Assembly: GCA_964016885.1 (NCBI GenBank) | Contig: OZ024742.1 | Coordinates: forward strand, 280,674,001-280,738,000 | Direction of reading: 5' to 3' | DNA length: 64,000 nucleotides | From: Eledone cirrhosa | Lineage: Eukaryota | Part shown: piece by piece, positions 60,527-61,460 of the stretch | Numbering within the stretch: the stretch's first letter is position 1 | Layout of the letters: each line of letters begins with the position of its first letter | Translations under genes and position numbers: made by a program | The notes under the pieces: model-generated | The model's database searches: none | Told to the model about the DNA's origin: nothing | Seen by the model: the letters and a program-made list of their open reading frames with translations, nothing else

Positions 60527-61460
60527 TACAATATGTTGAAAAGGTAACACACCAGAGAGAGATATAGAGTGGGCTATCAGTAAAACAGGGAAAAAACCAC
60601 CAGTGTATGGAATCTATAACCTATGAAAGGCAGACTACAGACAGGATAATTAAAAATATAAATTAAAGCGTGAATAAATACCGTTATAACTATATAACAC
60701 ACGTACAAATCCAAAGAGATGTTTCGCCAGTAATTTGTTGACAGAAATGGAATAACCTCGGTTCATCAGCATGTGTATGGCTATACGTTTCAGACAACAC
60801 TAAGAGAATTTTAAAAGTGACTATCCAGCTACACGTGGGAGAGAGAAGTCACAGCGTGTTTAAGGGCCCTGAACCATTTGCCTCTGAGGGACGAGCTGCT
60901 AGAAAGGGCAGCCCAAAACCACTCAGAGAAGTGTGCTCAACCAAACAGAGAGATAGTAAATACTGTTATAAGGAGCGATATATCACGATAAATTAACGGA
61001 ACCATAGGCCCTTGCAATTCCCTGTAAATAATGTGCTCAAAGGAGAAGAAATCCTGAGCTCTTTAAAATACAATATGTTGATTCCATAGACCAGTGGTTT
61101 TTTTCCCTGTTTTACTGATAGCGCACTGTATATCTTTCTCTGGTGTGTTACCTTTTCAACATATTGTATTTTAAAGAGCTCAGGATTTCTTCTCCTTTGA
61201 GTACATTATTTACAGGGAATTGCGAGGGCCTAAGGCTCCGTTAATTTATCGTGATATTTCGCTACTTATAACAGTCTTTCCTATATCTCTGTTTGGTTGA
61301 GCACACTTCTCTGAGTGGTTTTGGGCTGCCTTTTCTATCAGCTCGTCCCCCAGAAGCCACTGGTTCTCTGCCCTTAAGCACGCCGTGACTTCTCTCTCCC
61401 ATGAGCACATTATTTACAGGGTATTGCGAGGACATATGGCTCCGTTAATTTATCGTGATA
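60527..61460. mobile_element. Retrozyme-like element: ~542 bp unit with terminal redundancy plus a permuted inverted copy
   Basis: tacaatatgttga occurs at 60527 and 61069. 61082-61402 is the reverse complement of the unit end joined to the unit start. Confidence 0.8.
60698..60775 (-). ncRNA. Type I hammerhead ribozyme with full stem III
   Basis: Minus strand: cacatg CTGATGA acc gaggtt...attact ggc GAAAC atctctttggattt GTA cgtgtg. Confidence 0.75.

Follow-up and report, generated by a model that had tools for sequence, protein, structure and literature searches.

A noncoding hammerhead repeat with paired fixed 3' ends in (TA)n microsatellites of Eledone cirrhosa: a probable retrozyme inserted in the manner of Penelope-like elements

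INTRODUCTION

Metazoan non-LTR retrozymes, as set out in the sections of PMC7229834 used here, are noncoding units with one type I hammerhead that form head-to-tail repeats, reach high copy numbers, and co-occur with Penelope-like elements (PLEs). Circles of 170 to 400 nt were cloned from them, and copying of retrozyme circles by PLEs was proposed in the same paper; the terms "inverted," "target site," and "microsatellite" have 0 occurrences in its main text. A preprint (bioRxiv 10.64898/2026.07.22.740005) gives a retrozyme range of 51 to 972 bp and, in the part cited, proposes a PLE origin. A demonstration of the PLE route was not found in the cited parts of these two sources. A two-armed layout with complementary ends is known for PLEs, and no description of it for retrozymes was found in the portions of the literature searched.

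EN+ PLEs, represented by the Poseidon element PAc (PMC11167929) and by Neptune and Naiad (PMC8557442), are described in those sources as leaving partial tandems, an inverted 5'-truncated copy, and an optional tail between two RT start sites, as targeting AT-rich or (TA)n DNA, and as carrying a hammerhead in their repeat. In the experiments cited from PMC11167929, PLE protein cut and extended both strands in vitro, favoring AT-rich DNA, reverse transcription began at two sites within the RNA by which the tail is delimited, and ribozyme cleavage was dispensable, with unprocessed RNA as the main substrate. The tail is given as 30 to 40 nt in PMC8557442. Nonautonomous PLE-type Chlamys elements, such as MRC1, are likewise described there as multicopy head-to-tail insertions.

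The repeat described here, designated U, shares with metazoan non-LTR retrozymes the noncoding unit, hammerhead, head-to-tail repetition, copy number, and PLE co-occurrence listed above, lies within the retrozyme size range at 542 nt, and shares with EN+ PLEs the tandem, inverted, tail, target, and hammerhead features. The best explanation (probability, about 0.6) is that U is an animal non-LTR retrozyme mobilized by PLE machinery, with two-site priming in cut (TA)n DNA on a repeating, most likely circular, RNA.

RESULTS AND DISCUSSION

Structure of the insertion

The stretch analyzed (the window; 64,000 nt) is AT-rich animal DNA dense in microsatellites, taken from an assembly of 3.0 Gb. A single insertion at positions 60527 to 61463 lies inside a (TA)n run and consists of two outward-pointing arms of U, which was defined as the reverse complement of positions 60527 to 61068 (Table 1). 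The longest stop-to-stop frame of the element is 84 amino acids. No LTRs are present, the repeat at its end being an overrun of the period.

Table 1. Features of the U insertion and its flanks (window positions 60407 to 61515)
Feature	Position	Strand	Remarks
(TA)n target microsatellite, left flank	60407-60526	none	
Left arm, 555 nt, U530 via one whole unit to U542	60527-61081	minus	Terminates 3' at E1, the fixed short end
13-mer TACAATATGTTGA, first copy (U530-542), at E1 end	60527-60539	plus	Self-alignment
Type I hammerhead motif	60697-60776	minus	Read by hand, supported by conservation
Hammerhead CUGAUGA	60769-60763	minus	
Hammerhead GAAA	60725-60722	minus	
Predicted cut after GUA (after U365)	between 60704 and 60703	minus	
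13-mer TACAATATGTTGA, second copy, left-arm overrun into next unit upstream	61069-61081	plus	Self-alignment
Head-to-head junction of the arms' 5' ends, overlap of 2 nt	61080-61081	none	
Right arm, inner segment, U455-542 then U1-233 across unit junction	61080-61401	plus	
Internal jump from U233 to U30, at imperfectly similar pyrimidine tracts	61387-61402	plus	
Right arm, terminal segment, U30-U91	61402-61463	plus	Terminates 3' at E91, the fixed long end, and merges into (TA)n
(TA)n target microsatellite, right flank	61458-61515	none	

Self-alignment of the element recovered the 13-mer, the read-through of the unit junction, and the third piece that the first-pass annotation had reported, as well as its unit of about 542 bp with a hammerhead motif on the minus strand, for which coordinates are refined in Table 1. 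The repeats inside the element exceed chance (blastn E values from 1e-32 to 0), and the two 13-mer copies are spaced at the period of 542. Two of the earlier interpretations gave way: the 13-mer is no terminal repeat, the left arm merely measuring 555 nt over a 542-nt period, and the third piece, listed at 61403 to 61460 as a recopied internal fragment, is the fixed 3' terminus of the right arm.

The left arm is 96.2% identical to the family consensus and the inner segment of the right arm is 94.1% identical to it; against a U+U tandem, that segment aligned at 91.6% without a break over the end-to-start junction. The internal jump amounts to a skip of 338 nt, equivalent to 204 nt back. Under the proposed mechanism, the cDNA begun at E1 would have run for 555 nt, 13 nt beyond a full turn, which would give the repeated 13-mer. 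The cDNA begun at E91 would have run from U91 to U30, skipped 338 nt, and continued from U233 back through the junction to U455; it spans about 720 nt of template, including the skipped bases. The jump may represent a template switch during copying, a process invoked in the first-pass annotation, or a later deletion. Arms of several segments were seen in 11 of 144 insertions, some of them explained by nested inserts. Public contigs (three runs, one sample) cover the repeat deeply. Among those listed, none spans the locus, so the locus junctions rest on the assembly.

Family size and fixed ends

A DNA search of the genome returned 2,626 first-look candidate copies, 40 of which were scored, and the U family comprises well over a thousand copies of a noncoding 542-base repeat, dispersed over many contigs. 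Mapping covered 150 loci: the 30 best DNA matches, 60 from two end-pattern searches, and 60 more from the same searches (40 and 20), these last all on one contig (C1). After removal of duplicates and of copies cut by locus edges, 144 insertions were kept, among which a few locally duplicated copies remain. The family consensus is 542 nt long, with 37 common polymorphic sites.

Copies end at two fixed 3' sites 90 nt apart, E1 lying upstream of E91, while their 5' ends vary. The sequence of E1, ..CAACATATTGTA followed by a TA repeat, had 479 exact matches in the genome, and that of E91, ..TTATCGTGA followed by a TA repeat, had 1,004; reversed-pattern controls gave 0 in both cases. The read-through form of E1 had 1,452 exact matches. 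Start points permuted around a circle, as anticipated in the first-pass annotation, are not what these ends display: copying sets out from one or the other of two fixed sites, and scatter is confined to the truncated 5' ends.

The insertions comprised 101 with two arms and 43 with one. Among the two-armed insertions, 87 paired E1 with E91 (85 with a slightly narrower end window), 2 paired E91 with E91, none paired E1 with E1, and 12 had one or both ends unclassified. The E1-plus-E91 pattern recurred in each of the three sampling sets, and the window insertion is of this common type. Such near-strict pairing bears on how the tail and inverted repeats of PLEs form. Inner junctions (n = 91) overlapped by at least 1 nt in 56 cases, were blunt in 11, and contained extra bases in 24. 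In one locus (L057:1504-2041), an arm contains an 87-nt subrepeat (U474-U27) in three copies.

Hammerhead motif

The window copy carries one ribozyme motif, in which the core, stems I to III, and the GUA site can be recognized, with a stem I of 7 bp and an A·C pair at 10.1-11.1. An AG that completes stem III is absent from this copy and present in 51 of 113 copies. Across 100 copies, the 10.1-11.1 pair was A·C in 71 and A·U in 25, whereas G-C is highly conserved at this position in the hammerheads covered by the cited part of PMC4209133. Rfam models gave no match over the whole window at the gathering score; at E values of ≤10, no hammerhead was recovered, and the only matches were hairpin and TA-repeat chance matches.

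Conservation supports the assignment. Mismatches at the 12 core positions numbered 13 in 1,479 (0.9%), compared to 3,756 in 70,720 (5.3%) elsewhere, and in 100,000 random draws of 12 positions no set reached the conservation of the core. In a set of 30 copies, taken mostly from the divergent end of the 113 and including the window copy, stems were paired in 92.5% of cells. Covariation in this set was weak, with one compensated pair in four related sequences. The minimum free energy fold of the isolated window motif was not a hammerhead (z = -0.5). The consensus folded as a circle gave a z of -3.6 (40 shuffles), and its antisense strand folded like shuffled sequence. The motif is an atypical, putative ribozyme with a predicted cut site; the 10.1-11.1 pair (A·C or A·U in 96 of 100 copies), the AG missing from the window copy, and the fold of its isolated motif speak against activity. 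At the sequence level, U has the features of animal non-LTR retrozymes, for which both cleavage and a circular RNA would be expected.

Template of the arms

Pattern-picked arms (n = 186) had a median length of 175 nt; 28 exceeded one unit and 1 exceeded two units. Among the 144 insertions, the longest arms reach up to three units, and only 7 arms contain two or three whole ribozymes, which counts against the proposed explanation. Copying also proceeds over the predicted cut after U365, since 81 of the 94 passes that reach U380 go on beyond U355; an indel at the cut site was found in 2 of 129 passes. A cut linear monomer was accordingly rejected as the usual template, stops near the cut being only about 1.5 times the average. 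The circular or multimeric template suggested by the first-pass annotation is borne out by both the junction read-through and this crossing of the cut site.

Arm stops are spread round the unit, with a peak of about 2.4-fold at U461-480. Over U461-500 (window positions 60608 to 60569, minus strand), near a T6 tract, stops occur 1.6 to 2.4 times more often, possibly at a transcript 5' end or an RT pause.

The proposed mechanism would begin with transcription of two-ribozyme arrays, self-cutting to monomers, and ligation of these into circles. A GIY-YIG/RT complex, by analogy to the cited experiments of PMC11167929 and to the PLEs of this genome, would then cut both (TA)n strands. From the ends observed, cDNA would be primed at E91 on one strand and at E1 on the other. 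The cDNAs can cross the unit junction and the cut site and stop at variable points (median, 175 nt; at most three units), and their 5' ends meet head to head, in most cases with an overlap of a few bases.

The principal rival, in which family and PLE two-site priming are unchanged, takes the template to be a linear, multimeric transcript, left uncut, from a source array of tandem units; the ribozyme would be slow, gated by protein, or of use only in setting transcript ends. Such a transcript accounts equally well for read-through of the junction and of the cut site, and the noncanonical ribozyme and the dominance of unprocessed RNA as substrate in the cited part of PMC11167929 speak for it, as could the stop enrichment at U461-480 if it marks a transcript 5' end.

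Comparisons within insertions bear on both templates. At the 37 common polymorphic sites, arms disagreed at the same template position in 11 of 394 comparisons and passes one unit apart disagreed in 69 of 1,006 (about 7%), compared to 41% between insertions. The excess across units was significant (Fisher's exact test, P = 0.003) and favors the multimer, but it was not retained (P = 0.19) without the three longest arrays (L013, L026, and L095), whose units are mixed. Mixed units are not predicted by a single circle; the mixture in L013 fits tandem duplication after insertion, which weakens the multimer's case, and those in L026 and L095 are unexplained. A paired test of the 20 insertions that allow both comparisons showed no cross-unit excess (divergence higher across units in 8 and lower in 12). 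Also against the multimer, no long master array was present in the 144 insertions (at most 3 units), and three divergent subfamilies (L109, L126, and L128) are each homogeneous across units. L126, for example, differs from the consensus by 6 to 9% and yet has 0 differences in 197 cross-unit positions. Since each divergent subfamily is uniform, repeated single-unit bottlenecks are implied. Such bottlenecks come naturally to a circle, which they favor; they also fit a source array that is young and uniform, or a small number of dominant sources, and likeness of the two arms could arise without a single shared molecule if only a few source loci were active. In the window, T at U53 occurs in all three passes (10 of 206 calls in the family, three of them the window's own), and C at U489 occurs in both passes (14 of 267 calls). 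A circular template is considered probable, and an uncut multimer a possible but clearly less likely one.

RNA-editing scars were sought and rejected as a feature of the family. The ribozyme strand showed no A>G excess (shared variants, T>C in 46 of 5,394 and A>G in 8 of 2,877), and by distinct sites the difference was small (28 of 210 T versus 12 of 117 A).

Insertion mode and origin of the two arms

U insertion works like that of a nonautonomous PLE. Two staggered ends with inverted arms are a PLE footprint, which suggests PLE machinery, and an autonomous PLE family in this genome shows the same (see below). Compared to the retrozymes of the cited sources, U is unlike in occurring mostly as dispersed insertions of less than one unit to 1.3 units rather than in long arrays, and in having two arms with two fixed complementary 3' ends in (TA)n; it is also longer than the cloned circles of PMC7229834, and it is known here from DNA. 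Compared to the EN+ PLEs as cited, it has no ORF and a tail of 90 nt instead of 30 to 40 nt, and 3 to 4 nt (TAT and ATAT) are common to its ends and the target, a homology not seen where PAc started (PMC11167929). The Chlamys elements resemble the 3' end of their autonomous family and belong to a clade without canonical hammerheads, according to the cited part of PMC8557442, whereas U carries a hammerhead, and the loci examined yielded no autonomous 3' end that matches it. For the proposed PLE route of animal retrozymes, the U family supplies exact coordinates: two priming sites separated by 90 nt, (TA)n as the target, and, from the same genome, a Neptune-like enzyme family as a candidate.

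In L1 twin priming, an inverted 5' part results when a single break is primed twice, the second priming falling at a variable internal site and the arms not overlapping. In U, by comparison, each priming site is fixed, and on the template the arms overlap. For 22 of 79 simple E1-plus-E91 insertions, neither arm includes the whole of the other, for which reason the arms are taken as two separate cDNAs rather than a fold-back, and the inversion is best read as the product of two separate primings. Coincidence of the arms' 5' ends was not significant on the unrolled template (P = 0.09 to 0.34) and borderline modulo 542 (P of about 0.04). Fold-back (self-priming) of one cDNA, by which PMC3846280 interprets head-to-head PLE palindromes and to which a few near-symmetric junctions might be credited (13 of 79 lying within 30 nt, compared to a permutation mean of 9.1; P = 0.09), also conflicts with the two different fixed sites at the outer ends of 87 of 101 insertions, and later DNA rearrangement of a tandem satellite, although local duplication does happen (L013), conflicts with the dispersal of copies, so that an origin by either route is very improbable.

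Candidate mobilizing elements

The genome contained 10,597 GIY-YIG candidates, 150 of which were scored, giving 45 PLE-containing loci. Five loci (L179, L180, L183, L188, and L192) represent an autonomous PLE family, the 3' repeat of which contains a minimal hammerhead. In L179, a 636-amino-acid protein combines an RT, scoring under the Pfam cutoff, with a C-terminal GIY-YIG domain and has the linker CX4CXXC; compared to the description in the cited part of PMC8557442, the family appears Neptune-like. The family possesses, in (TA)n, fixed short and long 3' ends that are separated by about 45 nt; the two opposite arms of L188 bear one end of each kind.

Among the 45 loci, a small sample (150 scored of 10,597), no PLE showed sequence homology to U, and no ORF for RT plus GIY-YIG was found in the element or in shared flanks. 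The lack of a homologous PLE in this sample and the length of the tail count against the proposed explanation. Two apparent matches were rejected. One to U476-543 beside a PLE ORF (L155) is a separate short E1 copy within (TA)n, 300 nt after the stop, and a weak one to U387-432 in another PLE family is AT-rich and antisense to the ORF of that family.

These searches bear on the reading of U as the mere pseudo-LTR of a longer autonomous PLE, the copies being its truncated 3' ends. In the cited parts of PMC8557442 and PMC11167929, PLEs are likewise characterized by two ends, inverted arms, a hammerhead, and targeting of (TA)n; the preprint introduced above (bioRxiv 10.64898/2026.07.22.740005) links retrozymes to pseudo-LTRs in the part cited, and in one locus (L082) a PLE-type RT fragment leads in the same sense into U312. 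Against this, long arms lead into more U and not into an ORF, the 3' regions of PLE ORFs showed no U homology in the 45 loci, and the 5' flanks of the 43 single-armed copies had no coding sequence in common by blastn or tblastn. The first-pass annotation had held that fixed linear ends continuing into a longer coding element would speak against a circular template; the ends proved to be fixed, at two sites, and a shared coding continuation was found in 0 of 43 single-armed copies. The pseudo-LTR reading is largely refuted for the sampled copies and is now most unlikely, and descent of U from a pseudo-LTR is possible.

Possible hybrid insertions and neighboring elements

In four single-armed copies, U abuts the outward arm of another element head to head, with no TA separating the two. 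In L099:2478-3095 (contig C1, near 97.044 Mb), a U arm ending at E91 is joined with a 2-nt overlap to a long end of the L179 family, both ending in (TA)n; this insertion pairs two long ends and breaks the long-plus-short rule. U is joined to another hammerhead repeat in L073:1504-2450 and to an abundant hammerhead family in L052:1190-1522 and L081:600-1522. These joins may be mixed two-RNA insertions or deletions between neighbors in one microsatellite. Tentatively, a PLE dimer could use two fixed sites on an RNA circle made by the ribozyme to prime both strands of a microsatellite that has been cut, and could roll past the ligation site; its halves could also carry different RNAs, which would yield the four hybrids. 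If so, hybrid arms would name the mobilizing enzyme of each retrozyme family straight from genome sequence.

The abundant hammerhead family was seen in L186:7781-7960 and 23 other loci, has short and long ends of its own, and is frequently located in one microsatellite with U; the short end of this family, ..ATATTGTA or ..ATCATTGTA followed by TA, resembles E1. The decayed PLE-type RT of L082:1504-3025, with the motif DITMGASDSAQITDLLG, is presumably Naiad-like, and its same-sense join to U312 would be consistent with a template switch or a nested insertion. Elsewhere in the window, two 709-nt copies at 62845-63551 and 50319-51027 are 93% identical and look by eye like an LINE reverse transcriptase fragment. 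At 36337-37679 and 52772-53926, direct and inverted repeats spaced by about 530 nt form two clusters that are related to each other and possibly represent another two-armed family.
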